From: Pyrobaculum aerophilum str. IM2
GTDB lineage: Archaea > Thermoproteota > Thermoprotei > Thermoproteales > Thermoproteaceae
Assembly (NCBI RefSeq): GCF_000007225.1
Contig: NC_003364.1
Location: forward strand, 1,080,001 to 1,112,000
Reading direction: 5' to 3'
Length of the DNA stretch: 32,000 nt
Shown: piece by piece, positions 9,622 to 31,270 of the stretch
How the letters are laid out: every line of letters starts with the position of its first letter
How positions within the stretch are numbered: position 1 is the first letter of the stretch
Notes under the pieces: model-generated
Databases searched by the model: none
What the model saw: only the letters and a program-made list of their open reading frames with translations
Told to the model about the DNA's origin: nothing
Translations under genes and position numbers: made by a program

Positions 9622-9750
9622 CGGCCTTGCGGCCGTCCGAAACCGGTTGATCCTGCCGGACCCGACCGCTATCGGGGTAGGGCTAAGCCATGCGAGTCGC
9701 GCGCCCGGGGGCGCCCGGGAGCGGCGCACGGCTCAGTAACACGTGCCTAA

Positions 9751-10730
<980 letters not shown>

Positions 10731-10873
10731 TGCGGGCAACCGCGACGGGGCTACCCCGAGTGCCGGGCGAAGAGCCCGGCTTTTGCCCGGTCTAAAACGC
10801 CGGGCGAATAAGCGGGGGGCAAGTCTGGTGTCAGCCGCCGCGGTAATACCAGCTCCGCGAGTGGTCGGGGTGT

Positions 10874-10904
<31 letters not shown>

Positions 10905-11048
10905 GGCAAGTCGCTCCTGAAATCCCCGGGCTCAACCCGGGGGCGGGGGGCGATACTGCCGGGCTAGGGGGCGGGAGAGGCCGCCGGTACTCCGGGGGTA
11001 GGGGCGAAATCCGTTAATCCCCGGAGGACCACCAGTGGCGAAAGCGGG

Positions 11049-11088
<40 letters not shown>

Positions 11089-11393
11089 GAGCAAAGGGGA
11101 TTAGATACCCCTGTAGTCCCGGCCGTAAACGATGCGGGCTAGCTGTCGGTCGGGCTTAGGGCCCGGCCGGTGGCGAAGGGAAACCGTTAAGCCCGCCGCC
11201 TGGGGAGTACGGCCGCAAGGCTGAAACTTAAAGGAATTGGCGGGGGGGCACCACAAGGGGTGAAGCTTGCGGCTTAATTGGAGTCAACGCCGGAAACCTC
11301 ACCCGGGGCGACAGCAGGATGAAGGCCAGGCTAACGACCTTGCCGGACGAGCTGAGAGGAGGTGCATGGCCGTCGTCAGCTCGTGCCGTGAGG

Positions 11394-11425
<32 letters not shown>

Positions 11426-11801
11426 CCGCCCCTAGTTGCTACCCCGTCCTTCGGGACGGGGGGCACACTAGGGGGACTGCCGGCGTAAGCCGGAGGAAGG
11501 AGGGGGCCACGGCAGGTCAGTATGCCCCGAAACCCCGGGGCTGCACGCGAGCTGCAATGGCGGGGACAGCGGGATCCGACCCCGAAAGGGGGAGGCAATC
11601 CCGTAAACCCCGCCCCAGTAGGGATCGAGGGTTGCAACTCGCCCTCGTGAACGTGGAATCCCTAGTAACCGCGTGTCACCAACGCGCGGTGAATACGTCC
11701 CTGCCCCTTGCACACACCGCCCGTCGCACCACCCGAGGGAGCCCTCTGCGAGGCCCCTCGCCGAAGAGGTGGGGGGACGAGCAGGGGGCTCCCAAGGGGG
11801 G

Positions 11802-11851
<50 letters not shown>

Positions 11852-11852
11852 A

Positions 11853-15289: not shown

Positions 15290-18232
15290 ATGCGGGCTTT
15301 GTTGGGCGTTCTCCTCGTCGTGTTCACGGCTTTTGCCTACAACGTCTTCTGGGGCGAGTTTATTCACTGCGATATCGGCACTTGCCCGTATCCTAATCCC
15401 GACGGCAAATTCCTAGAGATCGGCCCTAACTACGCCGTTTTTGACACGCGCGGAGACCCCTCGGCGATGGGGTTTTTCGTATTGGCCGTTGAGTTTAAGA
15501 GACACACGACGGTTACAATCCAGGGCTGGTGGTCTTATGAACTCCCGCGGACTTTGGCTTACGTCGTGTCCGACAAGGGGCTTACGGCTTTTGAGTGCTC
15601 CACAGGCGGGGGGCAGCAGTGTAGCGTCTCCGGCGCGGCGGCCCCCGGCGTTTATTATATCGTATTTGTCGACGCGTGGGCGGCGCAGACAGTTAGAGTG
15701 GAGGCGGACGGCCCGCTCGACCTTATAGACGTCTCGCCTCAGCGCGTTGCTTGCGCCCTCTGGAGGGCCGGCGTCTTGAGGGGACAGCGCATAACATACG
15801 CCTTTAACTGGCCGTCTAGGCCCGGCGCCTCTGTTTCTCAAGATATTGTGGAGGGCTCTTGCGGCCCGCCCGATTTGCAAGAGGCCCTGGCCTTTGCCGC
15901 CGCGGCCGGGCTCAACGCGACGGAGGCCTCCCTCCTCACGCGTCCGCTGGGCTACAACGTGACTGCAGTGGAGAGGAAGTACGGCTCCGCCGTGTTTTAC
16001 CTCCAGCCCGACCTCACTTACGTAGTGCCCCTGGCTCTTGAAGTCCAGTGGCCTAACGCGGGCCGGCTCCTCCTCGTCAACCCGAGCAACGTCTCAGTCA
16101 CGTGGGCCGTGGAGCTACGCCTTTCTAACAAAACGGGGAGCTCCGGCGTTGCCCACGGGTCGAGGCTGTCTTTAACAAACGTCACGCTCCCGCCGCGCTC
16201 TGTCTACGAGCTGTACCTCTACGGCGTTGCCAGAGAGGGGGGCTCTTACGTCTTTTCCTACCGGATTCGGGCGGCGGGTAGTTACAGCTGGAGCAATTAC
16301 GTTTTTTACACAGAGGGCCGGCTTGTGACGCAGAACGGCTCTTTCCTCAACTGGCTTTGGGGTAGGCTGGAGCAGTTCTGGGGCGGCGTGACTGGGGATA
16401 AATGCGCCGAGGCGCGGGGGGCTGGGAGGAGCTGGGCCGCGGAGAGGCTGGGCCTCCAGGGCGTTGTCGCAGAGCTCGACGCGGCCGCGGGCTTTGTGCT
16501 GATGACAACTGGCGTGGGGGAGTTGGCGAAGGCCGCCGGCGGGGCGGCCAAGGCCTCTGAGAAGGCGCTTGAGATTTGGAGGAAGCTCTCCCGCCCCATT
16601 AAGGCCGTCCTCTACCTAGACCTCCTCGCCAACGGCGTGCTCCTGGGCTGGGACGCCTACCAGGAGGCGGCCTCGGGGCAAATCCCCTGGCGGGAGATCG
16701 CAGACGCGGCCCTTATGGCGGGCGGGCCGGTGCTCCAGCGCTCTCGCCTCATGGCCTCCCTCCTGGCCTCTGGCTCCGGCGTCATGCTTTTCCTCGGCGA
16801 GCCTTTCGACGCGGCGCAACAATTCGCCGACGATCTCTACGCCGAGGCTTCTAAATACGGGAATTACTCCCAGTGTTTTATCGACGGGGCCCTCCAAGCC
16901 TTCTCCACTTACGCCCAGGAGGCCACAATAGCGAATTACCTCGGCGTTGTTTCCACTTTCGTCGACTGGTCCAAGCTCGAGCTCAGCCGCCACTGGCTGG
17001 GGTACAGACAAATAGCCGCGCTGTCTGCCTTTGACTATAAAACCCCAGGTCCGATATTTAAATTCGATAAGAGCGGCTATCGGTTTATTGCTGTAAATAA
17101 AGAAAAACTTGGATATGCCTCCAGTGGCAATGTTATTATGTTTGAAATAAGTAGTAAGGACAATAGGCTTTATTCTGTGGCTAGGTGGAATAAGTTTTTA
17201 AGGTGGGTGTCTTGGCTGGCTGTGGAAGAGGGTAAATACGGCGGCGTTGATTATGAACTCAGACTCGCCAGATTTGAATACCAAGAGAGTAGCGGGGCGA
17301 CAAAAACGGCGTTGGCAGCTGTTGTAGTAGATAAAAAGACGGGGGTTCCGCTGTTATTGTCTTATAATGACTATTTCATGTCGCTGGTTGTGGGCAAGGC
17401 TTTACAAGGCGGCGTTATGGGCCGCGTCTATGAGGTAACGCTGGCTGGAGTTAAGGGGCAGGCCAGGGCGTTTACCTTTGACTTTCCTGGGAATATGGAG
17501 AAAGTGGCGTGCGTCAATGCCGCTGGCTGTAGGTGGGAGACCCTTATTAAGTACTTAACAGGCGTCTTAGCGCCTGAGTTGTACAACGCAAGGCCCGAGG
17601 CAGTTGGCATGGAGGTTTTTCTTATAAAAGAGGCGAGAGAGGTGGTAAGCGCTAAGTCTCTGGCAATAGACTGGCTTGAGCCTGGTAGTAAAGGCCTTTT
17701 TCTAGTGCAACAGCCAGGCACGGCTTTTGACGTGCTTGCAATAGATAGAGAGGGGCGTCTTGTAATTGTGGAAGTTAAAAGAAAAGAATATTTGAAAAGA
17801 GAGGAGGATCTCCGCCAGTTGGCAGATAAGATCAGTTACTTACGGCAGCTTGATAGAATAAAGGGCGTTAGTGTGGGCGATGCGCTTTCATATCTAATCG
17901 CGGCTTACAACGGGGCAGGCCCCAGCGGAATAGGGAGCCACGGGGCTTCTAGTACTTTTGTATATGAGCCCGTTCTGCAAGTCTTAAATTGGAAGGGGGA
18001 TAAAACACGGGTTATTTTTTCATTTGTTGTTGTAGATATAGATAATCATAAAGCAGTTGTTTATACGGTGGAGAGGAGGCTGGAGGAGCTGACGTATGAT
18101 TTTATAAAAAACGTTGCAAAAGACGCGTATGACTTATTTGATTATGTTAAAACTGAAGGCGGCGTTGATATACGGGATGTGGTACGCGCTACGGTTGCGC
18201 AATACTCAGGCACTCCGCCGTTTTTAAAATGA
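15290..18232 (+). CDS. large secreted/glycosylated-looking protein with compositionally distinct C-terminal region carrying a NucS/PD-(D/E)xK-like nuclease motif
   Basis: The ORF is open from 15218 (TTG). I prefer the ATG at 15290, which gives a signal-peptide-like MRALLGVLLVVFTAFAYN. Many N-X-S/T sequons are present (NAT, NVT, NVS, NKT, NVT, NGS, NYS). The motif FDVLAIDREGRLVIVEVKRK lies at 17726-17785. The stop overlaps the next start (ATGA). Confidence 0.75.
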   Translation: MRALLGVLLVVFTAFAYNVFWGEFIHCDIGTCPYPNPDGKFLEIGPNYAVFDTRGDPSAMGFFVLAVEFKRHTTVTIQGWWSYELPRTLAYVVSDKGLTAFECSTGGGQQCSVSGAAAPGVYYIVFVDAWAAQTVRVEADGPLDLIDVSPQRVACALWRAGVLRGQRITYAFNWPSRPGASVSQDIVEGSCGPPDLQEALAFAAAAGLNATEASLLTRPLGYNVTAVERKYGSAVFYLQPDLTYVVPLALEVQWPNAGRLLLVNPSNVSVTWAVELRLSNKTGSSGVAHGSRLSLTNVTLPPRSVYELYLYGVAREGGSYVFSYRIRAAGSYSWSNYVFYTEGRLVTQNGSFLNWLWGRLEQFWGGVTGDKCAEARGAGRSWAAERLGLQGVVAELDAAAGFVLMTTGVGELAKAAGGAAKASEKALEIWRKLSRPIKAVLYLDLLANGVLLGWDAYQEAASGQIPWREIADAALMAGGPVLQRSRLMASLLASGSGVMLFLGEPFDAAQQFADDLYAEASKYGNYSQCFIDGALQAFSTYAQEATIANYLGVVSTFVDWSKLELSRHWLGYRQIAALSAFDYKTPGPIFKFDKSGYRFIAVNKEKLGYASSGNVIMFEISSKDNRLYSVARWNKFLRWVSWLAVEEGKYGGVDYELRLARFEYQESSGATKTALAAVVVDKKTGVPLLLSYNDYFMSLVVGKALQGGVMGRVYEVTLAGVKGQARAFTFDFPGNMEKVACVNAAGCRWETLIKYLTGVLAPELYNARPEAVGMEVFLIKEAREVVSAKSLAIDWLEPGSKGLFLVQQPGTAFDVLAIDREGRLVIVEVKRKEYLKREEDLRQLADKISYLRQLDRIKGVSVGDALSYLIAAYNGAGPSGIGSHGASSTFVYEPVLQVLNWKGDKTRVIFSFVVVDIDNHKAVVYTVERRLEELTYDFIKNVAKDAYDLFDYVKTEGGVDIRDVVRATVAQYSGTPPFLK

Positions 18233-19263
18233 TTCCAGACGTCGTTATATGCGTTAGCTTTGAAGAAGAGGGCGGCCGCGTGTCTCTACAGCCCGTAGCT
18301 GGCGTGAGGAGAACTGGCTTTAGATTTGAGCCGAGGGCCGCGGCAAGCGGCGCCTTCATTAAGAGAATAGATGCCGAGGGAGTTGTCTTATTTACAGGCG
18401 GCGATAGTAATCACAGCGTTGTATTTCCACTGCCAGACGGCACTTATTTATTATACGACGAGGCCGGCCCCCCGCCGCTGGTTGACTACCCGTCGCCCCC
18501 CTTGCCGGCTTTAGACGATTTTGGAAACGTGCACTGGACCCGTTTTATCGGCGATATAAGTGCAGAATACAACGATAGGTACTACGCCATATTGCCCGGG
18601 GGCAACACGGCGTTTGTATACGAATGGACAGGCCCTCCCACAGGCTTAAGCATTAGCGAGGGCATAGACTTCTACGCGGCCGTTCTGCTCTCAATTAGAT
18701 ACAAAGACGAGTGTTTACGCGAATATTTAAAGCAACGCACTCTACAATTGACAAATAAAGAGTGCAATCCACGTATACGACAAGTATTATCTGGGCTTGA
18801 CCCCCGCTTCCCCGGCTCCGGCCGCCTCGTTGGCGAGGAGTTCCGCATTGTAGAACCCGACAACGACTATTTGAGGCTTGTGGGGAGAGGCGGCGATGAA
18901 TACATCGCCTGGGATTTCGTGTTGGGAACGCTTGACTCGGGCGAGTGGATTATTATGGCCGACGACGGCCTTTACACTGCCGTGAGAGAGGGCAGTCGCG
19001 TTGTTGTAAAAGAGCCTTACCGCGGCTCTTTAATAGACGTCAGGGGGCCTCCCACGGCTTATAAATACCCCGTCGTCCCAACCCGTACTTTTAAACACGC
19101 AGAGTTGTATGGGGCTAATGTGACTTACGACGCCACGTTGTTAAAATGGCCTTTGAGTGGGTTATTAAAAGAGGTTGCGTTGAGGTTTAATTTTAAAGGC
19201 GTGGTTCACACCAGCGGCTCTTCTGTTATAACATGTGATCTCGGATATGCTGATAGTTTGTGA
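18229..19263 (+). CDS. uncharacterised paralog family member 1 (P1)
   Basis: 344 codons with an ATGA overlap onto the upstream ORF. The C-terminal half (DPRFPGSG...EPDNDYLRL...IAWDFVLGTLDSGEWIIMADDGLY...GSLIDVRGPPTAYKYPVVPTRTFKHAELYGANVTYDATLLKWPL) is shared with the next gene. Confidence 0.75.
   Translation: MIPDVVICVSFEEEGGRVSLQPVAGVRRTGFRFEPRAAASGAFIKRIDAEGVVLFTGGDSNHSVVFPLPDGTYLLYDEAGPPPLVDYPSPPLPALDDFGNVHWTRFIGDISAEYNDRYYAILPGGNTAFVYEWTGPPTGLSISEGIDFYAAVLLSIRYKDECLREYLKQRTLQLTNKECNPRIRQVLSGLDPRFPGSGRLVGEEFRIVEPDNDYLRLVGRGGDEYIAWDFVLGTLDSGEWIIMADDGLYTAVREGSRVVVKEPYRGSLIDVRGPPTAYKYPVVPTRTFKHAELYGANVTYDATLLKWPLSGLLKEVALRFNFKGVVHTSGSSVITCDLGYADSL
18907..19151 (+). repeat. conversion-tract-like repeat, copy in P1
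   Basis: 18907-18975 is identical to 19901-19969 (69/69). 19024-19151 matches 20018-20145 at 127/128. The two tracts are separated by a 48-nt strongly diverged patch. The offset is constant at 994 nt. Confidence 0.85.
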
Positions 19264-20269
19264 AGATATATGTCAGTTTAACGCGGCTGGACTGTTAATA
19301 ACCGGCGTTAGAAGACGGGAAATTGGTTATTTATACGTGACACACTCGGAGATTTTTCCCCCTTTGGCAGTTTTTGAAGTATATTCAGGGGAGAAAAACG
19401 CAGTAGTTGCGGTGATTAAAAGCGGCGGCAATATCTATTTAGCGCAGAGAGCGCCTCCCGGGCCACTCCGTGGGGAGAAGGAATGGAGGGGCTACATACT
19501 ATATGAGTGCAGAAAAGGATGTGAAATAGATGATTATCCAGCCCCGCCTTTACCAATACGCAGATTTGATAAGGTCTTTTTCACAAGGTTTATATCTATT
19601 AGACGCCGCATGAGCATTCAGGGAGGCGAAATTATATGGATCCCCCATGGGGCCGATGTCATGAACTTTGCCTATTACAGAAACCCGGTAGCCACTTTTC
19701 TCGCGATTAGGTACAGGCCTGAATGTAGGCCTAAGGGGCAATATCTGCCTAGTTGTGTTTTCGATCTACCTTTTCGTGATATTCAAAATGACGACCCCCG
19801 CTTCCCCGGTTCCGGCAAACTGACGGGGGAGGAGTTCCGCGTGGTGGAGCCCGACGCAGATTACCTCCGCCTCATCGACCGCGGAGGGGATGAGCATCTT
19901 GCCTGGGATTTCGTGTTGGGAACGCTTGACTCGGGCGAGTGGATTATTATGGCCGACGACGGCCTTTACGTCGCAAAGAGGGATGGGGATAGAGTGGTGG
20001 TGGCCAGTCCCTATTACGGCTCTTTAATAGACGTCAGGGGGCCTCCCACGGCTTATAAATACCCCGTCGTCCCAACCCGTACTTTTAAACACGCAGAGTT
20101 GTATGGGGCTAATGTGACGTACGACGCCACGTTGTTAAAATGGCCGCTAAACGCGCAGAGAGGCGGGGAGTTTAAGCCAGAGCTGGGGGCGCCGATGTAT
20201 TTAAATCTTGATTACTGTCTCTGTCTGAAGTGTAAGACCTACAGGCTGGCGAGATATTTTAATAGTTAA
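19247..20269 (+). CDS. uncharacterised paralog family member 2 (P2), tandem duplicate of P1
   Basis: The ORF is open from the GTG at 19235. The ATG at 19247 (MLIVCEDIC) aligns with the P1 N-terminus (MIPDVVICV). It overlaps the P1 3' end by 17 nt. The C-terminal half is near-identical to P1. Confidence 0.75.
   Translation: MLIVCEDICQFNAAGLLITGVRRREIGYLYVTHSEIFPPLAVFEVYSGEKNAVVAVIKSGGNIYLAQRAPPGPLRGEKEWRGYILYECRKGCEIDDYPAPPLPIRRFDKVFFTRFISIRRRMSIQGGEIIWIPHGADVMNFAYYRNPVATFLAIRYRPECRPKGQYLPSCVFDLPFRDIQNDDPRFPGSGKLTGEEFRVVEPDADYLRLIDRGGDEHLAWDFVLGTLDSGEWIIMADDGLYVAKRDGDRVVVASPYYGSLIDVRGPPTAYKYPVVPTRTFKHAELYGANVTYDATLLKWPLNAQRGGEFKPELGAPMYLNLDYCLCLKCKTYRLARYFNS
19901..20145 (+). repeat. conversion-tract-like repeat, copy in P2
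   Basis: Partner of 18907-19151 (see that entry). Confidence 0.85.
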
Positions 20270-21536: not shown

Positions 21537-22640
21537 GTGAGCAGGCCGGGATTTTTCTGGCGTAAGTGGCTCGAGGGGAGCTCGCGGTGGATTTACGTCG
21601 GCATGTGCCCCGTGGAGATGTTAGAGGGAAGTGAAAGCGCCGTGGTGGGGAGAGCCGGGGACAAGTTTGTGTTATATATATCTGCGCCTTCCCGGCGTTG
21701 GGACGGTGAAGGCGATTTATTTAAAGGCGCCGGCCCCCGGGTACAGGGCTTATTTTCAGCCAAGCCCGTTTTAATAAAGGGGAGTCTTGGGATGTTGGTA
21801 GAGGGCCCTCACAGCGGCGCGTTCAAGCCCCTCTGTATCCCCCCACTGGGCGGATCTAGGTGGTGGGTGTTTTCAACAATGGACTGGTCGTTTTTTGAAG
21901 AACACGGCCTAAACTACCCCCCTGGAGATCACGCATTGTATGTACTCACTGAAAGCGGAATTTCGCAATACTGCAGTCCCTGCCACGAGTTTAATTCAAC
22001 TGCGCACAGCCTCTGTAAATTCGCCTTTGGCGGGAAGTGGCTGTACCACTCCCCCGTCGGTCCTCCGGTGAGCGCGCCTGGCGCCGGGGCGTTGAATGAC
22101 GCAGAGCTGCCTGTGATTAAGTTTAGGGACAGATATCTGCGAGTTGGCGAGTGGATTGCTTGGCACAGAGTCCTCGGCATTCTTGACGACGGCAAGTGGG
22201 TTATTATAGGCGACGACGGGCTGTATGAGGCGGTCTTTAAGCCCACCGCCAAAAACCCCCTCGGGGAATTCGGAGAGGTTGGCTACGTCAAAATCCTCGG
22301 CCCCTACGCTGGAGATGTTGACGATGTGCAGTCCCCATGCGGAGCGCCGAGACTTGTGGCTTGTACAGAGGAGGGGCTTAGGGCGGCGGAGGCTTTGCTT
22401 AAATACATAGAGGGGCTTCTGAAAAGTAGTGGGGTGTATGACGTTATTAAGTTTTTGCCCAGGGCTTGGACGTGCGAAAAGCCGTTTGTAATTCCAGAGC
22501 TAGTCGAGATAAATGTGCCTAACGAGGTAGTGGCGGACTGGCCTCTGGGAAATCCCTGTCCGCACGTGCTGAGGGCGGCAGATGGAGATCCCCTGGGGCT
22601 GTTAACTACGCGTACGTGGTACTTCTGCTGGACGCCTTAA
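21537..22640 (+). CDS. uncharacterised paralog family member 3 (P3), diverged
   Basis: 367 codons with a GTG start about 22 nt after TTTTTTATAG. It shares the family core RDRYLRVGEWIAWHRVLGILDDGKWVIIGDDGLYEA with P1/P2 (YLRL...IAWDFVLGTLDSGEWIIMADDGLY) and an N-terminal resemblance (IYVGMCPVEMLEGSESAVVG versus VVICVSFEEEGGRVSLQPVAG). Confidence 0.7.
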   Translation: MSRPGFFWRKWLEGSSRWIYVGMCPVEMLEGSESAVVGRAGDKFVLYISAPSRRWDGEGDLFKGAGPRVQGLFSAKPVLIKGSLGMLVEGPHSGAFKPLCIPPLGGSRWWVFSTMDWSFFEEHGLNYPPGDHALYVLTESGISQYCSPCHEFNSTAHSLCKFAFGGKWLYHSPVGPPVSAPGAGALNDAELPVIKFRDRYLRVGEWIAWHRVLGILDDGKWVIIGDDGLYEAVFKPTAKNPLGEFGEVGYVKILGPYAGDVDDVQSPCGAPRLVACTEEGLRAAEALLKYIEGLLKSSGVYDVIKFLPRAWTCEKPFVIPELVEINVPNEVVADWPLGNPCPHVLRAADGDPLGLLTTRTWYFCWTP

Positions 22641-22701: not shown

Positions 22702-23301
22702 ATGGAGAAAAGAACTGCTATGATTTTAATGATTGCTGGTGGGGCTTTTTATATAGCTGGAGGAGTGGTCGGAGCGTACGTCATCGCCGTCCTCAAGGGG
22801 GTGGAGATGGGCTTAGTAGGAGGTAGCGAGGAGGAAGTCTGGGCTGCTATTACGCCTGTGATTGCAACAGGTCTTGTGACTGGTTTGTTAATTGTACTAG
22901 GAGGAGTTCTGGTTAATTCTGAGAGTAGGAAAAATAGAGTTATCGGTAGCATTTTGGGTATTGTAATGGCTTTACTTGGCGCAATTAACACTTTTGGAGG
23001 CTTAATTATTGGGATAGTGCTTGCTTTTATTGGGAGCGTTGCCGGGTTGACTTATAAGCAATCTATGAGGGCATCGTTGTCTGCGCCTAGCCATGTCCAG
23101 GACGTTGTCCGCTGGGAAGTTAGGGATGCGCAGAGCAGTCCGGCCCCGCCTCAGTCGCGCCGCCCAGCGTCTAATGAACAGAGCGCCCCCGAGCCGGGTT
23201 GGTACTTATTTCAACACGAGGGGGATCAGCACTATTGGTGTTATTACGACGGAGAGAAGTGGCTTACATGTAGGTGGGCCTCTTCTCAACCATCTGAATA
23301 G
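22702..23301 (+). CDS. small multi-pass membrane protein with cytoplasmic/extracellular tail carrying a GWY...YWxxYDGxxW motif
   Basis: I prefer the ATG at 22702 (MEKRTAMILMIAGGAFYIAGG), preceded by an AT-rich TATA-like stretch at 22668-22684, over the GTG at 22654. There are four hydrophobic helices. The C-terminal PGWYLFQHEGDQHYWCYYDGEKWLT resembles the DUF2510-type GWY/YWDG/W motif by eye. Confidence 0.65.
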   Translation: MEKRTAMILMIAGGAFYIAGGVVGAYVIAVLKGVEMGLVGGSEEEVWAAITPVIATGLVTGLLIVLGGVLVNSESRKNRVIGSILGIVMALLGAINTFGGLIIGIVLAFIGSVAGLTYKQSMRASLSAPSHVQDVVRWEVRDAQSSPAPPQSRRPASNEQSAPEPGWYLFQHEGDQHYWCYYDGEKWLTCRWASSQPSE

Positions 23302-23674
23302 ACTCAAGCGGTTGGCCGGCATTAAAGCGGAGTCAGGTTGCCTATGGCGGCGGAGTCTAGAAGACGGGACGGCCAGTCGGCAGAACAGCGGCAGGGCTGT
23401 TTGGGTGAAAACTGCCAGGCGAGAGGTAACTTTTAACCGCCTCTGCGCGCCGGATTATAACAACGTTTTCTACTGTAGCGGCTGTGTTGAAAAGGGCGTC
23501 GATGTAATTAGACGTGTAACCACTTGTTGCATGAGGGGCAGGGGACATAGTTAAGGGCCCGGGATTTGTGGCGCAGTTGAACAGCCGTTGCTGAGGTGCG
23601 TTACCAGAGCACTGGAGGGAGTTGACAGGGGGCTTGCCTCTGCGCGTCAGTTTTTTAAATTTGTCTTGTATTAC

Positions 23675-24314
23675 GTGGTCCTCTCTCCCGAGGAGAAGAG
23701 GCGTTTTTTAAAAGCGCTGGAGGAGGATCAAGAGTTCAGATACGCGGTGGCGGGGTTGCTGGGCCTCGGCGAGGTGTTGAACGAGTTGAGGCGGTTGAGG
23801 GAGGACTTTAATAACTTCGTACAGAGGAGTGAAAAAAGCCGACGAGAGGCGCTGGAGGCAGAACGAAAGACGCTGGAAACAGAACGAGAAGAAGTGGAAA
23901 GAGAACGAGAAGCGATGGGAAGAGGCCTATAAGCGTTTTGACAACATCGAGAGGAGGCTCTCCAACGTGGAGAGTACGCTGGGGGCTATGGCCGAGAGCC
24001 AGCACTCCCGCTACGTCTGGGAGGACTTACAGGCTGAGATAAGGGCGAGGGGGGAGGCGTTAATGCGCCGTGTTAGAAGTGCAAGGTCTATTTTCGGCCT
24101 AATTTTCACCTCGACGACGTAAACGCGACGGTCTGTCTCGATGAGCAAGTCAATGTCGACGTTGTCAACGGACGTGGGAGCGCTTTTAGCCAAGGCGGAG
24201 GTGGTAAAAAGCGCGTTGCAAAAAGAGGCAGTCCCCGTACTGACGGGGGCTTGGATAGGAGACGACGTGGAGAAATACGCCAGGGGCAAGGGTGTGTTGG
24301 TGTACAGCTACTAA
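23675..24314 (+). pseudogene. coiled-coil + PD-(D/E)xK nuclease-like gene (multi-copy Pyrobaculum-type family), disrupted by an A-run frameshift and an 83-bp internal inversion
   Basis: GTG at 23675, about 20 nt after TTTTTTAAAT. The N-terminus is VVLSPEEKRRFLKALEEDQEFRYAVAGLLGLGE. The frame changes at A6 (23832-23837) into ...ERRWRQNERRWKQNEKKWKENEKRWEE.... The catalytic core VDNVDIDLLIETDRRVYVVEVKIRPKI is encoded on the opposite strand (24087-24169). The C-terminus DVGALLAKAEVV...GVLVYSY* is back on the plus strand and in frame. Confidence 0.75.
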
Positions 24315-24839
24315 GCCGCCGTAGGGCCTCCGCGGCCTCTACCCTGGGCGTGTGCGCCTCGTAGGCGGAGCGCCGGAGGCCCCCTCCATTTACGCACAGG
24401 GGGCGGCCGCCGCGAACTAGTCGTCGCTTCCGTCTTTGTCGACTTGTCCAATAGTAAACAACGGACTGGGGCACAGACAGCTGGCGGCCTTTGAATACAA
24501 AAGCCCCAGGGCCTATTTTTACGTCGAAGGAGCGCGGGCTTCACACGGCATGTAAATTACGAATTGACTAAATATATTGGGCCAAAAGTGGTTGATTTTT
24601 GCGTTAAAAGCCCCAGCCAGAGTCTGGCTTCTGGCTGTGTCGGCTGTAAGTGTCTTGTGGGCTGGCGGACGCGGCCTGCCTGGCCCACTGTAGTTTGGCT
24701 CGGAAGGCTGTGGAAAAGATTAGCCGCAAAACGCCTAAAAAAGAGGACAGAGAAGCCATATGTCCAATCCCGGGGGAGAATACGGGCATTAGATGTAGTT
24801 GTGTGATTTGCTCCTGTTTGGAGCAACGCCTAGGCAAGT

Positions 24840-25259
24840 CTAAGGGTCTAGTAGGCCTCTGGCGTCTAGCTCTTTGTGTAGCTTCATAATTATTTCTGAC
24901 ACATAGGCGTATCTTCTCTCTTCTAACACTTGGCGTATTTTCTCCACGTTGATTTCTCCATATTCGTGGACGATAATGTTTCTAAATCCCACTAGCCTTC
25001 TTAAAGCCTCTCTCTCCTCGCCGCTTAGCAAACCGGCTGAGGCTAGGCTGGCTATACATTTCAGTGGAGTTTCTCCTCTAATGCCCACTACGGCGCATGT
25101 GTGTAATAAGTAGTCTATAATTGACTGGGAGTGTATCTGCAGGGCGTGTAGAACTGCGTAGAGTTCAAACACGTCGTCCCAGTTTACTCCGCGTCTTCTT
25201 ATTTTTTCTAGGAATTCTAAATGCCGTAACACTTCTTCTATTAGCTTATTGTGTAACAC
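24840..25259 (-). CDS. hepT: HepT (DUF86/HEPN) toxin of a HepT-MNT toxin-antitoxin pair
   Basis: 139 aa carrying the Rx4HxY HEPN motif in LVGFRNIIVHEYGEI. It overlaps the upstream MNT gene by 14 nt. Confidence 0.85.
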   Translation of the reverse strand: MLHNKLIEEVLRHLEFLEKIRRRGVNWDDVFELYAVLHALQIHSQSIIDYLLHTCAVVGIRGETPLKCIASLASAGLLSGEEREALRRLVGFRNIIVHEYGEINVEKIRQVLEERRYAYVSEIIMKLHKELDARGLLDP

Positions 25260-25647
25260 GTCTCAGCACGCCATTGACAAACTTTTTTGTAAACTCCACT
25301 TTTTCTCTCATAATTATGTAGTCGTTACACACGTTGATAGCCCTTATCAACACTTCTCTGCCCTTGAGGTCGTTGTAGATTAAAACTCCATTTGCCACCG
25401 CCTGGAGAAAGAGGACGCAGTTAATTTCGTTGACGTCTCCGAAAGCATAGACGTCGGCGGGGAGCCCGGCGACGTTTTCCACGGCCTCCATGGCGTTTAG
25501 CATTACCTCTTCCACGTCTCGGTCTGTGTAAATAACCAAGTCTATATCTCTTGGACTTGCCTTCCACAGCGCGGAGCCGTGTAGAATTACAAGTCTGGCG
25601 CCGACAGCCCCCCAGTCTACTTGTCTCAACTTCTCCACAAGAGACAC
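25246..25647 (-). CDS. mntA: MNT minimal nucleotidyltransferase antitoxin
   Basis: 133 aa carrying the GS...DxD nucleotidyltransferase motif LHGSALWKASPRDIDLVIY. GTG start about 22 nt after a TATA-like GTTTTTTAACC on the minus strand. Confidence 0.85.
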   Translation of the reverse strand: MSLVEKLRQVDWGAVGARLVILHGSALWKASPRDIDLVIYTDRDVEEVMLNAMEAVENVAGLPADVYAFGDVNEINCVLFLQAVANGVLIYNDLKGREVLIRAINVCNDYIIMREKVEFTKKFVNGVLRRVTQ

Positions 25648-25698
25648 AGCTCCACATACAAAATGGTTAAAAAACTAATACACACACTTTCTACTCTC

Positions 25699-25860
25699 TG
25701 GGCGCCCTAAGGGGCGCGGGGCGCGTGCGGGACGCATGGCGGGGGCGTCCGTAGGGCTGGCAACCCCCTTGGCCTGGCGCCGACGGCGGCGTTTCCCCGC
25801 CTTCGGCCCGTTTGTAGGGGCCGCCCCGCCCTGCCCGAGGCTGGCGGGGGCCTCAAACAC
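25699..25860. ncRNA. candidate structured RNA of unknown family (strand undetermined)
   Basis: About 160 nt of very GC-rich sequence, bracketed by AT-rich TATA-like/oligo-T stretches on both sides (25664-25680 and 25886-25903). It has several perfect GC hairpins (GGACGC/GCGTCC, GCGCCC-CTTA-GGGCGC on the minus strand, GAGGC/GCCTC). Only implausible Arg/Pro-rich ORFs cover it. Confidence 0.35.
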
Positions 25861-26808
25861 TCCATGTGATTACTTTGACCAGCGCTTAAATTTTTGATTA
25901 AAGGGGCACGGAATGTTGTGCGATTTTGAATTAAGTTGCGTTGTCCTGAGACGCCGCTCTGACTACTAAAAGACCGTCGGTCAGGACCTGAATTCGGGAA
26001 CTCGAAGGCAACCCTGACTGGTGTTTTTAACGCGCCAAGAAAGGCCTGCGGAAAAACGGAATTAAGGTGAGGGCTGAGGTGGGCATAGGGGCTGGCGCCC
26101 GCTATACCCCGGCGGTAGGCCACAGAGTCCCGGAGTCCAGGCCGGGAGTGGCGGTTGAGTATTCCATCGGCGGCGAGGAGAGGGCTCGGTACACCGCCTT
26201 CTGCTGGGTAGCGCACCTCTTAAGGCGTCTACATTTCCCAAGTTGCGACGGCCAAAGTGGCCAACGTCTGTCGCCTCATAAGAGATGCGATAATTTTCTC
26301 TAAAAATCGTTGCAGTGTTAGAGACTTTTTGGAAACGCTACGCGGCCGCCTGAGTCAGCACAGGTAGGCTACGAGTTGCATGGAATCACAGCCTGCCTCT
26401 AGCGGATATCTTGCTCAACTCTTCATGCGCCTCCCTGATACGAAAATCATGTTGGACTTCTCCCCAGGCCTAGTACGTCGTTGCGGCCTCAGACGGCGTC
26501 TCGGCCACTAAGGTATATCTGTGGTTAGTACGCGCTTTATAAGTCGCGCGACGGCCGTCTTGTCTTGACGTGGCGGAGACAGATTCTGTCAGTATTTATT
26601 TTAAGGCTTTGGGAAGACTTGAGAAAGGAGTTGAGGGCAGTGCGTATGGTACACAGATACAAAAATCGTGTTATTCTGTGCCTCTACTAAATAGCCGAGA
26701 TTTAACACTATTTATAATTACATATAATTATCTTTATTTTTTACTTACTTACATAACTACATTACTTATCAACAGGAAATTATTTATTTTCCATTTCCCA
26801 AGTACGGC

Positions 26809-27858
26809 ATGGAAAAACTTATAGGCAGACTAGATCTATATGAGAGAGTTTTAAAGAATCCGGGGGCTGAGTTTAGGCGCTTATTAAAGACTGAACCATA
26901 TATTTTCACTACTGGCGTATATACGCCGTTGCAAGCTAAGTTAGCTCAGATAGCCGGCTTAAAAGCTGTATATATAAGCGGATACTCGTGTTCCGTGGGC
27001 TATCTCGGGGCGGCTGATTTAAACATCCTAACGCTTGAGGAGTATATTTGGATTGCCAGGCACATAGCAAATGCTGTTACAATCCCCGTCGTAGCTGATG
27101 CGGAGAGCGGATTTGGCAGTCTTTTTAACGCAATGCGCGCAGTAAAGGAGTTCTGGAGAGCCGGAGTCGCCGCAATTCACGTTGAAGATCAAGTATTTCC
27201 AAAGAGGTGCGGCCACTTGGCGGGGAAGCAAGTGATGCCTCTAGATGACGCAGTGGCCATGTTTAAGGCTATTGACAGAGTTAGGCGCAATATAGATCCT
27301 GACTTTTTCATTATTGCGAGAACTGACGCCATAGGCGCCTCCAATGTAGAGCCTGAGAAACAGATAGATGAGGCTATTAAAAGGGCTAAAGCCTATATTA
27401 ACGCAGGGGCCGATATGGTGTGGGCGGAGTTCACGCGACCCGACGATATTGATGCCATTACGAAATTCGCTGAGGGAGTTAGGAAGGAGTTCCCCGACGT
27501 GCCCCTAGCGTTCAACTACTCCTCTTCTTTCAGATGGCACAAGGCGAAGATCCCAGTTAGGTTTAAGTGGCTCGCAGAGCTTGGATATAAATACATCTTC
27601 ATAACTCTGGGCGCGCTACACGCAGAAACATATGCTGTATATAACTTTGTAAAAGACTTAGCGACAAGACAGGAAGAGGCTTTGTGGGAGTTGCAGAAAT
27701 TAAAGGAGGGCCACCCGACAGAGAGCCACCACAAACTCGGAGATTTCGACTACTTTAAGGAGCTGGAGGTGACGTTTTATCCATGGGCCAAGATCAAATA
27801 CGAGCGCGGCGCAGGCTACGGCTCAGAGAGGGATAAGGCGGATGAAAGGGTGATATGA
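26809..27858 (+). CDS. isocitrate lyase / PEP mutase superfamily enzyme (methylisocitrate-lyase-like)
   Basis: 349 aa carrying the superfamily signature FPKRCGHLAGKQV (K[KR]CGH), plus VVADAESGFG, IHVEDQ and IIARTDA. Confidence 0.85.
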   Translation: MEKLIGRLDLYERVLKNPGAEFRRLLKTEPYIFTTGVYTPLQAKLAQIAGLKAVYISGYSCSVGYLGAADLNILTLEEYIWIARHIANAVTIPVVADAESGFGSLFNAMRAVKEFWRAGVAAIHVEDQVFPKRCGHLAGKQVMPLDDAVAMFKAIDRVRRNIDPDFFIIARTDAIGASNVEPEKQIDEAIKRAKAYINAGADMVWAEFTRPDDIDAITKFAEGVRKEFPDVPLAFNYSSSFRWHKAKIPVRFKWLAELGYKYIFITLGALHAETYAVYNFVKDLATRQEEALWELQKLKEGHPTESHHKLGDFDYFKELEVTFYPWAKIKYERGAGYGSERDKADERVI

Positions 27859-28283: not shown

Positions 28284-28369
28284 ATAATATACTTTTGTAT
28301 ATCTGGGGTTCTGCTATTAAGTGCCTTTTTCCTATTCACAGTGTACACTATATTAAGATTTATCCCGGC

Positions 28370-28735
28370 GAGAGGCGCTGGAGGCAGAACGAAAAACGCT
28401 GGGCTGAGGCAAATAGGCGGCTTTCTCGCATTGAGGAGGCGTTGGGAGTAACGGCGGAGGGCTTGTGCTCCCGCTACGTCTGGGAGGACTTGAGGGAGGA
28501 GATTTATACAAAAGGCGAGGCCGTGGTTAAGAGGGCTAGGAGTGCCAAGGTGGATAATGTGGATCTCTTGGTGGAGACAAACCGCCACGTTGACGCCGTC
28601 GAGGTGAAGATTAGGCCTAGGGTTAAGGACGTCGGCGCCCTTCTGGCGAAAGCCGACGTCGTGAGGCACGTCTTTGGCAAAGGCGCTGTCCCGGTTTTAG
28701 CGGGGGCGTGGGTTGGAGACGACGTGGGGGAATAG
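28370..28735 (+). pseudogene. 5'-truncated, 3'-frameshifted second copy of the coiled-coil + PD-(D/E)xK gene
   Basis: Homology to the 23.7-kb copy begins abruptly at GAGAGGCGCTGGAGGCAGAACGAAA (28370, matching 23843). The nuclease core VDNVDLLVETNRHVDAVEVKIRPRV is in the normal orientation. The C-terminal end is 5 nt shorter than in the other copy, which gives a premature TAG at 28733-28735. Confidence 0.55.
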
Positions 28736-28867
28736 GGGGAAGGGAGTGTTGGTGTACAGCTATTAGCGCCCGCGCGGAGTTGTCCATACGGCGCTGGCTG
28801 GCGTTGGGCTCCGAGGGCGGCCTGTTAAAAAGAGGTCGCTGAGAAGCTCGGCGCGGCGCCTTGGGAA

Positions 28868-29680: not shown

Positions 29681-31270
29681 GTGGCGGCGCCTCGTGTTGC
29701 TAATGGGCGCAGGGGCGCCGGGGCTTTCAGCGGCGTGTTAAGGCGTTATTTTAAAAAGCATTTTGGGATCTCGCGCTGCTTTTAGCTCTTTGGGGGTTGA
29801 TGATTTGGCTGGGAGTTGAGCTGGCGCTTCTTGTCCAATACGTAGTGGACAGGATCGTCGCTGGGATAGTGCCGTGGGGCGGGCTTTTGGCAGTTGTGGG
29901 CATTGCCTCGGCGATTCCCCTAATTAATTTCCTCTCTGAATACAAGGCAAATGTGCTTTTGGGCGAGGTAACGCTCGACCTTTCCCACAGGATGGTCGTA
30001 TCTGCAATTAAAAGCGGCGGGGGTAGGGGCGAGGTTTTGTCTAGAATAAGCGGCGACGTTCTCAACGCCGCTATTTACTTGTTTTTTCCTGTGGACGTGG
30101 CGGTGGTTCTCGCCAGGCTTGCGGCGCAACTGGCGGCTTCTTTTTACATTTCCCCCGTGCTCACCCTAACGGCCTTGCCGCTAATAGCGCTTTACTTTTA
30201 CGTAGTCAGAAGAGTGGGGCCTGCCTTTCTCGCCTACGCCCAAAGGGAGAGGCTTCTCTACTCCGCGTGGTTTAAGAGGGCAAAGGAGGTGGTGGACGGG
30301 GCCCACAGCCTTTATAGAATGGGCGTGAGGGAGTTGCCTGGGGTATTGCTCAAGGCCACAGCTGAGTGGCTGTCTAGCTACAAAAAGCTCCAGCTCTACT
30401 CCAAGTCTCTAAACTTCGGCGCAAGCGCCATTGCCTTCGCCGCGCCGCACTTCGCACGGCTCTGGTGCTTTTCCTAACCCCCCCCCCTGGGGCTGTCCAC
30501 AGTGGGCTCTGCGGTGGCTGTGAGACACCTCTTAGCCGGGGTTTTTGAACCAGCGTCTCAGCTAATGGCTAAACTGAGCTCCTTTTACCAGTTCAAGGCG
30601 TCTTTTCAGAGAGTGGCCGAGCTAGTAGAGGGCTGGGCGGAGCCCCCCGCCGTAAAGCAAGGGACCAGCGTCGTCGTTAAAAACGCCGTGTTGGGCCACG
30701 GCGGTAGGGCGGTGTTACACGTCGAATCCCTCGTGCTTGAGCCTGGGGATTTCCTATGGATCAGGGGGCCCACCGGCGCCGGGAAGTCCACTCTGGGCAA
30801 GGCCATCGCAGGCCTTATAAAGCCCCTGGAGGGCTCCGTGGAGGCGCCGGAGGGCGCAATCTATATCGGCAATGACGATTATATCTCGACGGGACTGTGT
30901 ATGAAAACATCACGCTTTGGGAGGAATACCCGCGGGAGGAAGTGGAAAGGGCCGCGCGGCTCGCCCGCATAGAACTTCCCCCTGGATAAGCCGTGCGGCG
31001 AGGGGGGGATCAAGCCTCTCAGAGGGGCAGAGGCAGCGGGTAATAATGGCAAGGGCCCTCTTGAGGAGGCCCAGGTCGCTTGTCATGGGCGAAATTACGT
31101 CGGGGCTAAACGCAGAGGTGGAAGAGGAAGTGCTGGAGGCAGTTAAGAGGGAAGTGCCCATTGTCGTGGTGATATCCCACAGAGACACCGCTGGGAAATA
31201 CGCCAATAAAATCGTAGAGGTGAACAACGGCATTGTGCGCGTGGTGAAATGTGCAACGCCTCGGCCGTAA
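29681..31270 (+). pseudogene. ABC exporter (fused TMD-NBD) pseudogene with at least five reading-frame lesions
   Basis: The N-terminus GVLRRYFKKHF is read from GTG 29681 and is out of frame with FWDLALLLALWGLMIW at a T4 run (29761-29764). An in-frame TAA (30475-30477) abuts a C10 run (30478-30487). Walker A GPTGAGKST is present. The frame changes near 30889 (into GTVYENITLWEEYPREEVERAARLARIELPP), at C5 (30978-30982) and at G7 (31002-31008). The signature LSEGQRQRV is present. Walker B is degenerate (LVMGEITSGLN). Confidence 0.75.

Follow-up and report, generated by a model that had tools for sequence, protein, structure and literature searches.

An exact 83-bp inversion without flanking repeats in a decaying PaREP7 gene copy of Pyrobaculum aerophilum

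The PaREP7 locus and its surroundings

The locus described here lies in a window of 32,000 nucleotides of the Pyrobaculum aerophilum str. IM2 genome (contig NC_003364.1, positions 1,080,001 to 1,112,000), and all coordinates refer to this window unless another sequence is named. Its subject is a gene copy assigned, on full-length similarity, to the repeat family PaREP7, which carries two disabling lesions. The relevant features are the following:

23650-23659, plus strand: A/T-rich box GTTTTTTAAA, about 20 nt 5' of the GTG start, seen in the sequence
23675-24314, plus strand: whole PaREP7 pseudogene from GTG start to TAA stop, delimited by full-length similarity after repair of two disabling lesions
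23675-23839, plus strand: conserved N-terminal domain (VLSPEEKRRFLKALEEDQEFRYAVAGLLGLGEVLNELRRLREDFNNFVQRSEKS) in frame A, from frame translation and homologue alignment
23840-23843, strand not applicable: +1 frameshift with CGAC between the frames, from alignment with the P. oguniense copies
23844-24086, plus strand: in frame B, Trp-rich coiled-coil repeats (RWxxNEK) leading into the nuclease-like domain, up to ...RRVRSAR
24087-24169, minus strand: inversion, exact and in place, whose minus strand encodes VDNVDIDLLIETDRRVYVVEVKIRPKI; boundaries from homologue alignment and tblastn
24170-24314, plus strand: C-terminal alpha-beta-alpha-beta part (DVGALLAKAEVV...GVLVYSY) in frame B, with the stop at 24312-24314
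28358-28768, plus strand: another PaREP7 copy, also degraded, whose core is in normal orientation, from tblastn and alignment

In the alignment, the pseudogene and the P. oguniense copies have their GTG start codons in the same column. The box GTTTTTTAAA may represent a putative archaeal TATA-like promoter of a leaderless transcript. From the GTG at 23675, the N-terminal domain (VLSPEEKRRFLKALEEDQEFRYAVAG...DFNNFVQRSEKS) is read in another frame than the rest of the gene. Frame A ends in ...AGC and frame B begins with GAG AGG CGC TGG (ERRW). The CGAC in between belongs to 13 nucleotides that the P. oguniense copies lack. The position of the extra base itself is ambiguous within approximately 23831-23850. 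This frameshift at about 23840-23843 is a lesion that the original prediction, made from the sequence of the window, did not include.

Frame B currently runs through ...EALMRRVRSAR into SIFGLIFTSTT and ends at a premature stop (24120-24122), to resume past the inverted segment as DVGALLAKAEVV...GVLVYSY up to the stop codon at 24312-24314. Both the premature stop and an ATG at 24141 on the plus strand are created by the flip of the 83 nt. The locus thus holds no intact PaREP7 open reading frame, as it is interrupted by the stop at 24120-24122 and by the frameshift near 23840. Turning the 83 nt back in silico yields a single open frame (23829-24314) without further stops apart from the two lesions. 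Nonetheless, this re-flip would not rebuild a full-length PaREP7 protein, because the upstream +1 frameshift leaves the N-terminal domain out of frame. Given the lack of further stops and a flipped peptide that is identical to intact homologues at 24 of its 27 residues, the inactivation is evolutionarily recent, with little decay so far. To judge from its reading frames, the locus at 23675-24314 is a dead, non-functional PaREP7 pseudogene.

Several neighbouring features deserve mention in their own right. Between the pseudogene and the ICL gene, the minus strand (24840-25647) carries HepT-like (HEPN) and nucleotidyltransferase (Polbeta) genes that overlap by 14 nt. The syntenic P. oguniense interval offers no room for this pair, which looks like a toxin-antitoxin-type insertion. 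Positions 25700-26800 comprise approximately 1.1 kb without a convincing gene and without an Rfam match. This stretch is hypervariable in strain L006 at 25723-25832, and its part at 26064-26231 is 71% conserved in P. oguniense (L014 3970-4136), where it has the opposite orientation and flanks the PaREP7 gene on its other side.

Further away, the ORF at 21537-22640 (367 aa) is a chimera of two tandem paralogues of 337 and 312 aa, mutually 42% identical, that are separate genes in most related contigs (cf. L001 12619-14567). The 845-nt deletion that fuses them is found in the window and in L010, and accounts for a cluster of apparent variants at 22158-22372. For the tandem 344-aa paralogues (ORFs 18229-19263 and 19235-20269), a variant cluster of L001 and L002 at one paralogue equals the window sequence at the other (positions 18976-19030 and 19970-20030), which points to gene conversion or exchange among strains. 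The 16S rRNA gene (9640-11852) exceeds the Rfam model by about 735 nt; within the insert, an ORF (9838-10698, 286 aa) encodes a LAGLIDADG_3 domain, suggestive of an rRNA intron that carries a homing endonuclease. An ABC transporter at 29797-30972 is apparently divided between two ORFs, one for the membrane part (226 aa) and one for the ATPase (156 aa). The latter fragment ranges from 119 to 156 aa among strains, so that this may be another decaying gene. A Pyrobac-1 sRNA is located at 81-140 (72.8 bits). Finally, a gene with DUF3782 and PDDEXK_10 domains (234 aa; L001 2622-3326) begins at the right end of the window, at about 31934, and has an architecture analogous to that of PaREP7.

Family membership and predicted fold

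The restored protein counts 211 residues. In a set of 5.8 billion proteins, its homologues align over 100% of its length with E-values around 1e-103 and 76-77% identity, the level at which it resembles the PaREP7 proteins P0005 and P0006 (P. oguniense TE7, P. arsenaticum). For P0005 (paREP7, P. oguniense), the match has an E-value of 4.5e-102 at 76% identity and 100% coverage, and the alignment with intact PaREP7 proteins is gap-free across both junctions of the inverted segment. By this full-length similarity, the gene is a member of the Pyrobaculum repeat family PaREP7, which has been plotted on the P. oguniense genome map (PMC3558965). As in the other members, a conserved helix at the N-terminus is followed by coiled-coil repeats (RWxxNEK) and, at the C-terminus, a D...ExK domain; the gene differs from intact ones by the 83-bp in-place inversion and the +1 frameshift.

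PaREP7 occurs in multiple copies that frequently decay, as seen in the second fragment of the window and in the broken copies P0125 and P0127; copy decay is normal for this family. The second fragment (28358-28768) lacks the N-terminal domain and has a two-codon deletion in its core as well as a C-terminal frameshift. It is located downstream of the ICL-CBS genes, a position at which P. oguniense has no copy. The original prediction had described a residue-for-residue match between the inverted segment and this copy at 28.5 kb. The alignment does exist, albeit with a gap of two residues.

Sequence profiles are of little help in classifying the family. Pfam returned no match at E<=0.1 except coiled-coil noise, and a profile search of the PDB yielded coiled-coil noise but nothing significant. 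The best NCBIfam hit (PRK14689, E=0.0056) remained far under its cut-off and equally reflects coiled-coil noise, and an hhalign comparison with a PDDEXK_10 protein was not significant (E=0.031). Structure prediction was carried out on the intact homologue P0005, not on the pseudogene, with an alignment of 47 sequences as input to AlphaFold2 (pLDDT 90). In the model, residues 19-138 form one very long helix that leads into a beta-beta-beta-alpha-beta-alpha-beta region, and the alpha-beta-beta-beta-alpha-beta core that the PD-(D/E)xK fold requires is present. When this model was compared with the PDB using Foldseek, the matches were PD-(D/E)xK nucleases only, with EndoMS/NucS as the best one (E=3.7e-5) and SfsA, Cdn1/Card1/Can2, AF1548, Bax1 and restriction enzymes among the further ones.

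The candidate catalytic residues are strongly conserved. Across 13 aligned sequences (window numbering), D143, E156 and V157 never vary, and conservation of K158 is 90% or higher. With 47 sequences (P0005 numbering), E171 and V172 show no substitution, and conservation of D158 and K173 again reaches at least 90%. D143, E156, V157 and K158 correspond to D158, E171, V172 and K173 of P0005, and are situated on strands 2 and 3, within the inverted 83 nt. The prediction of a PD-(D/E)xK-family gene is therefore borne out for both the fold of P0005 and the motif, and so is the placement of the D...ExK motif in the inverted piece. PaREP7 resembles PD-(D/E)xK nucleases such as EndoMS/NucS (5gke, 2vld) in core fold and D...ExK arrangement, and Thermoproteales proteins with DUF3782 and PDDEXK_10 domains in the succession of a helical N-terminus and a nuclease domain. 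PaREP7 differs in that no significant sequence-profile match to them is obtained. Intact PaREP7 is predicted to carry its nuclease-like domain, of the PD-(D/E)xK fold, at the C-terminal end of a long coiled-coil stalk. The P0005 model lends modest support to such a coiled-coil-tethered protein.

Extent, polarity and fixation of the inversion

The inverted segment (24087-24169) covers the end of beta-1 together with beta-2 and beta-3, with the motif D143...E156-V-K158 inside. In a tblastn comparison, residues 151-179 of the intact PaREP7 protein P0005 match the minus strand at 24172-24086 (79% identity, E=7e-12), and this match is flanked on both sides by plus-strand matches. Together with the homology of the restored protein, it places the inverted segment far beyond chance. 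To define the boundaries, the re-flipped DNA was aligned with five homologues, four of them from P. oguniense and one the second copy of the window. The columns just outside the segment, 24086 (AAG|GTG) and 24170 (GAG|GAC), are G in all five, and the first and last columns of the re-flipped segment are G and A, respectively, in all five. An inversion of 85 nt or of 81 nt would each cost two extra mismatches at bases common to the five homologues, which makes 83 nt the most parsimonious extent. The inversion is length-neutral, with zero bases gained or lost. These results agree with the original prediction, which had placed an exact 83-bp inversion at 24087-24169 and given the translation of its reverse complement as VDNVDIDLLIETDRRVYVVEVKIRPKI. 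This translation was reproduced exactly, as was the stop at 24120-24122 after ...RRVRSAR, and the flip restores a continuous frame to the stop at 24312-24314 as anticipated.

The polarity of the event follows from the closest outgroup. P. oguniense TE7 carries a syntenic PaREP7 gene (L014 5001-5576, P0021, 194 aa) upstream of its own PEP-mutase/ICL and CBS genes, whose DNA is 78.6% identical to that of their counterparts in the window. As this copy is intact and un-inverted, the inversion is derived in the lineage of the window. A scan of GTDB genomes with the restored protein retrieved P. oguniense copies and distant MAGs only, with no genome of the window's own species among them, which leaves P. 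oguniense as the closest outgroup obtained. Other candidates for an un-inverted allele were rejected. P0008 and P0019, the closest intact proteins, are paralogues at different loci; P0125 and P0127, longer members from the cluster of the 57-aa ORF, differ in sequence and represent other copies.

Within the lineage of the window, one orientation is observed. An exact-sequence look-up of the HepT-like (HEPN) protein encoded next to the pseudogene gave ten contigs with conserved synteny, which stem from different samples and were built by different assemblers. Over 10-16 kb, their divergence from the window is 0.1-1.1%. Nine of them match the 781-bp pseudogene region at 100% identity, and the tenth at 99.6%. 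An ORF of 97 aa across the left junction occurs in 39 blocks of the collection, and also on a contig of 2,222,430 bp. In assembled consensus sequences (SPAdes, MEGAHIT, Logan), 19 out of 19 syntenic loci show the inverted junction. Conversely, the hypothetical un-inverted junctions (…GTGCAAGG joined to GTTGACAACG… and …AAAATAGA joined to GGACGTGG…) were found in none of 29 loci, again in assembled consensus sequences. The restored sequence has no match above 79% identity in the set of 5.8 billion proteins. An un-inverted allele would give a near-100% match, hence none is represented in that set. A query of JGI metagenomes with two 14-nt flanks spaced by 83 N, in either orientation, gave zero matches and is uninformative for this lineage. 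The inversion is fixed in the sampled lineage, that is, among closely related strains with up to approximately 1% divergence.

Short, odd rearrangements can be artefacts, and an assembly error had been listed among the possible causes. Beyond this prior suspicion nothing speaks for an assembly or sequencing artefact, the probability of which is negligible. The identical junction was recovered from at least 15 samples, in SPAdes (NODE_) and MEGAHIT (k127_) contigs, Logan assemblies and NCBI MAGs, with all 19 independent contigs in agreement, and it is found on a complete chromosome of 2.22 Mb. These independent assemblies exclude an artefact. Moreover, as the junctions are free of repeats, a de Bruijn graph cannot mis-join them.

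Junctions, origin and meaning of the inversion

A repeat search revealed no pair of inverted repeats straddling the junctions, in agreement with the first reading of the sequence. The longest complementary stretch between the neighbourhoods of both junctions (25 nt to either side) measures 4 nt, a value equalled or exceeded in 1999 of 2000 shuffles. Junction microhomology amounts to 0 nt, and the flanking bases G24086 and G24170 are non-complementary. One 13-nt repeat with 92% complementarity (I1, 23938-23950 and 24156-24168) was considered and rejected: one of its arms lies about 150 nt 5' of the left junction, and it would invert 23951-24155 instead of 24087-24169. A hairpin or cruciform origin was likewise discarded, since the predicted DNA fold of 24057-24199 is no better than that of shuffled sequences (z = +1.4), and so was an explanation by a non-coding RNA, as Rfam has no match at E<=1 across 23300-26810. 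No recombinase or integrase domain was detected in the sizeable ORFs of the window or in the 10-kb flanks on either side in the syntenic contigs. Among the strain differences within the window, no other microinversions were seen.

The most probable account of these observations, in our view, is one exact microinversion that used no repeats and became fixed in a PaREP7 paralogue that is decaying, and we assign a probability of roughly 0.87 to such a one-off mutation. On this account, one mutational event reversed exactly 83 bp in place, length-neutrally and without inverted repeats. It happened once, before the sampled P. aerophilum-type strains (up to approximately 1% divergence) diverged, and is fixed. 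Flipping the strands with the D...ExK motif introduced the premature stop, and the +1 frameshift separates the N-terminal domain, so that the locus is not switched. The sequences themselves show the inversion with its boundaries and fixation, the second lesion, the lack of inverted repeats and the intact P. oguniense orthologue, whereas the mutational origin is inferred.

The most attractive alternative, raised in the original prediction, is a programmed, reversible intragenic inverton that toggles the PaREP7 nuclease ON and OFF. Its appeal is evident: the flip is exact and in place, takes out precisely the catalytic strands and leaves the reading frame otherwise undecayed, and intragenic invertons have been reported in bacteria and in one archaeal case (bioRxiv 10.1101/2023.03.11.532203). 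Like these, the inversion lies wholly within a coding sequence and produces a premature stop. However, the definition of an inverton (Chanin et al., bioRxiv 10.1101/2023.03.11.532203) calls for inverted repeats on both flanks, an invertase and coexisting orientations, and neither repeats, nor both orientations, nor a recombinase, nor a functional alternative state was found here. The segment has no flanking inverted repeats, a single orientation is present in 19 of 19 independent contigs, no un-inverted product figures in the protein catalogue and the window encodes no recombinase. Even the presumed ON state would still be devoid of the conserved N-terminal domain as a result of the upstream +1 frameshift. 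It had also been proposed to look for the same flip in other family copies, and among the PaREP7 members examined none has it. An ON/OFF switch is thus very unlikely. Rather, the assemblies contain the inverted orientation only and the junctions have no repeats, the combination that had been named in advance as the mark of a simple dead pseudogene. A variant of the switch, in which low-frequency flipping proceeds without inverted repeats, e.g., in dependence on a PaREP7-type nuclease, and the locus is an archaeal intragenic switch or its relic, is extremely improbable. If it were true, a low-frequency flip would silence a potentially toxic nuclease, and the minority orientation would be invisible in consensus assemblies. 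As it stands, the inversion locus reveals no new regulatory system.

For a one-off mutation, two routes come into consideration. The classical inverted-repeat route is not supported, as the junctions have no repeat. In human-chimp comparisons, all 59 of 59 microinversions are flanked by inverted repeats of 3-75 nt that lie at most a few bases from their boundaries, and inverted repeats stand beside each member of a set of 17-33-nt microinversions (PMC8755829). The segment studied here resembles those described by Potapova, Kondrashov and Mirkin in 2022 (PMC8755829) in being a short exact reverse complement, but differs in having no inverted repeat above chance. Short-range replication template switches of the type '1-3-2-4' in the four-point model, in contrast, invert a fragment without creating a repeat, and make up 45% of the high-confidence human-chimp events (PMC5453318). 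The inversion shares their hallmark (Loytynoja and Goldman 2017, PMC5453318), as the fragment equals its own reverse complement in place and no new repeat has arisen. It departs from that catalogue in its length (83 nt versus a typical 'few tens of bp'), and in being perfectly in place without junction loss or microhomology, archaeal and a single event. Within the one-off reading, we put the odds of such a template switch at somewhat better than even. The possibility of a template switch, already voiced in the original prediction, hence remains viable by the 1-3-2-4 definition, and is weakened by the 0 nt of microhomology, a usual though not obligatory feature of these switches.

The other route would start from two double-strand breaks and put the excised 83-bp fragment back in reverse by blunt end-joining; it has somewhat less than an even chance within the one-off reading. 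An exact, length-neutral and microhomology-free flip is its expected product, whereas a double template switch needs both switch points to be exact without guidance by repeats. The perfectly conserved length and zero microhomology slightly favour blunt re-ligation. On the other hand, the free 83-bp fragment would have to be recaptured, and inverting template switches without repeats are well documented elsewhere (PMC5453318). The frequency with which such switches are documented tips the scales towards a template switch, and so does the absence of any Ku-type end-joining pathway known from Thermoproteales. Canonical Ku/LigD end-joining is not known in this order. Neither mechanism leaves a diagnostic scar at the junctions.

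Regardless of the route, the lesion is a repeat-less short inversion, longer than most catalogued ones and archaeal: an uncommon kind of lesion in an ordinary pseudogene. In terms of annotation, the three short ORFs that appear here as 'hypothetical proteins' (114, 97 and 57 aa) are pieces of one PaREP7 pseudogene, and their reannotation is due. More broadly, the locus documents, for a hyperthermophilic crenarchaeon, a microinversion that is clean, dated, exact and free of flanking repeats. It could serve as the starting point of a genome-wide survey that may tell if Thermoproteales use short template switching or blunt end-joining.
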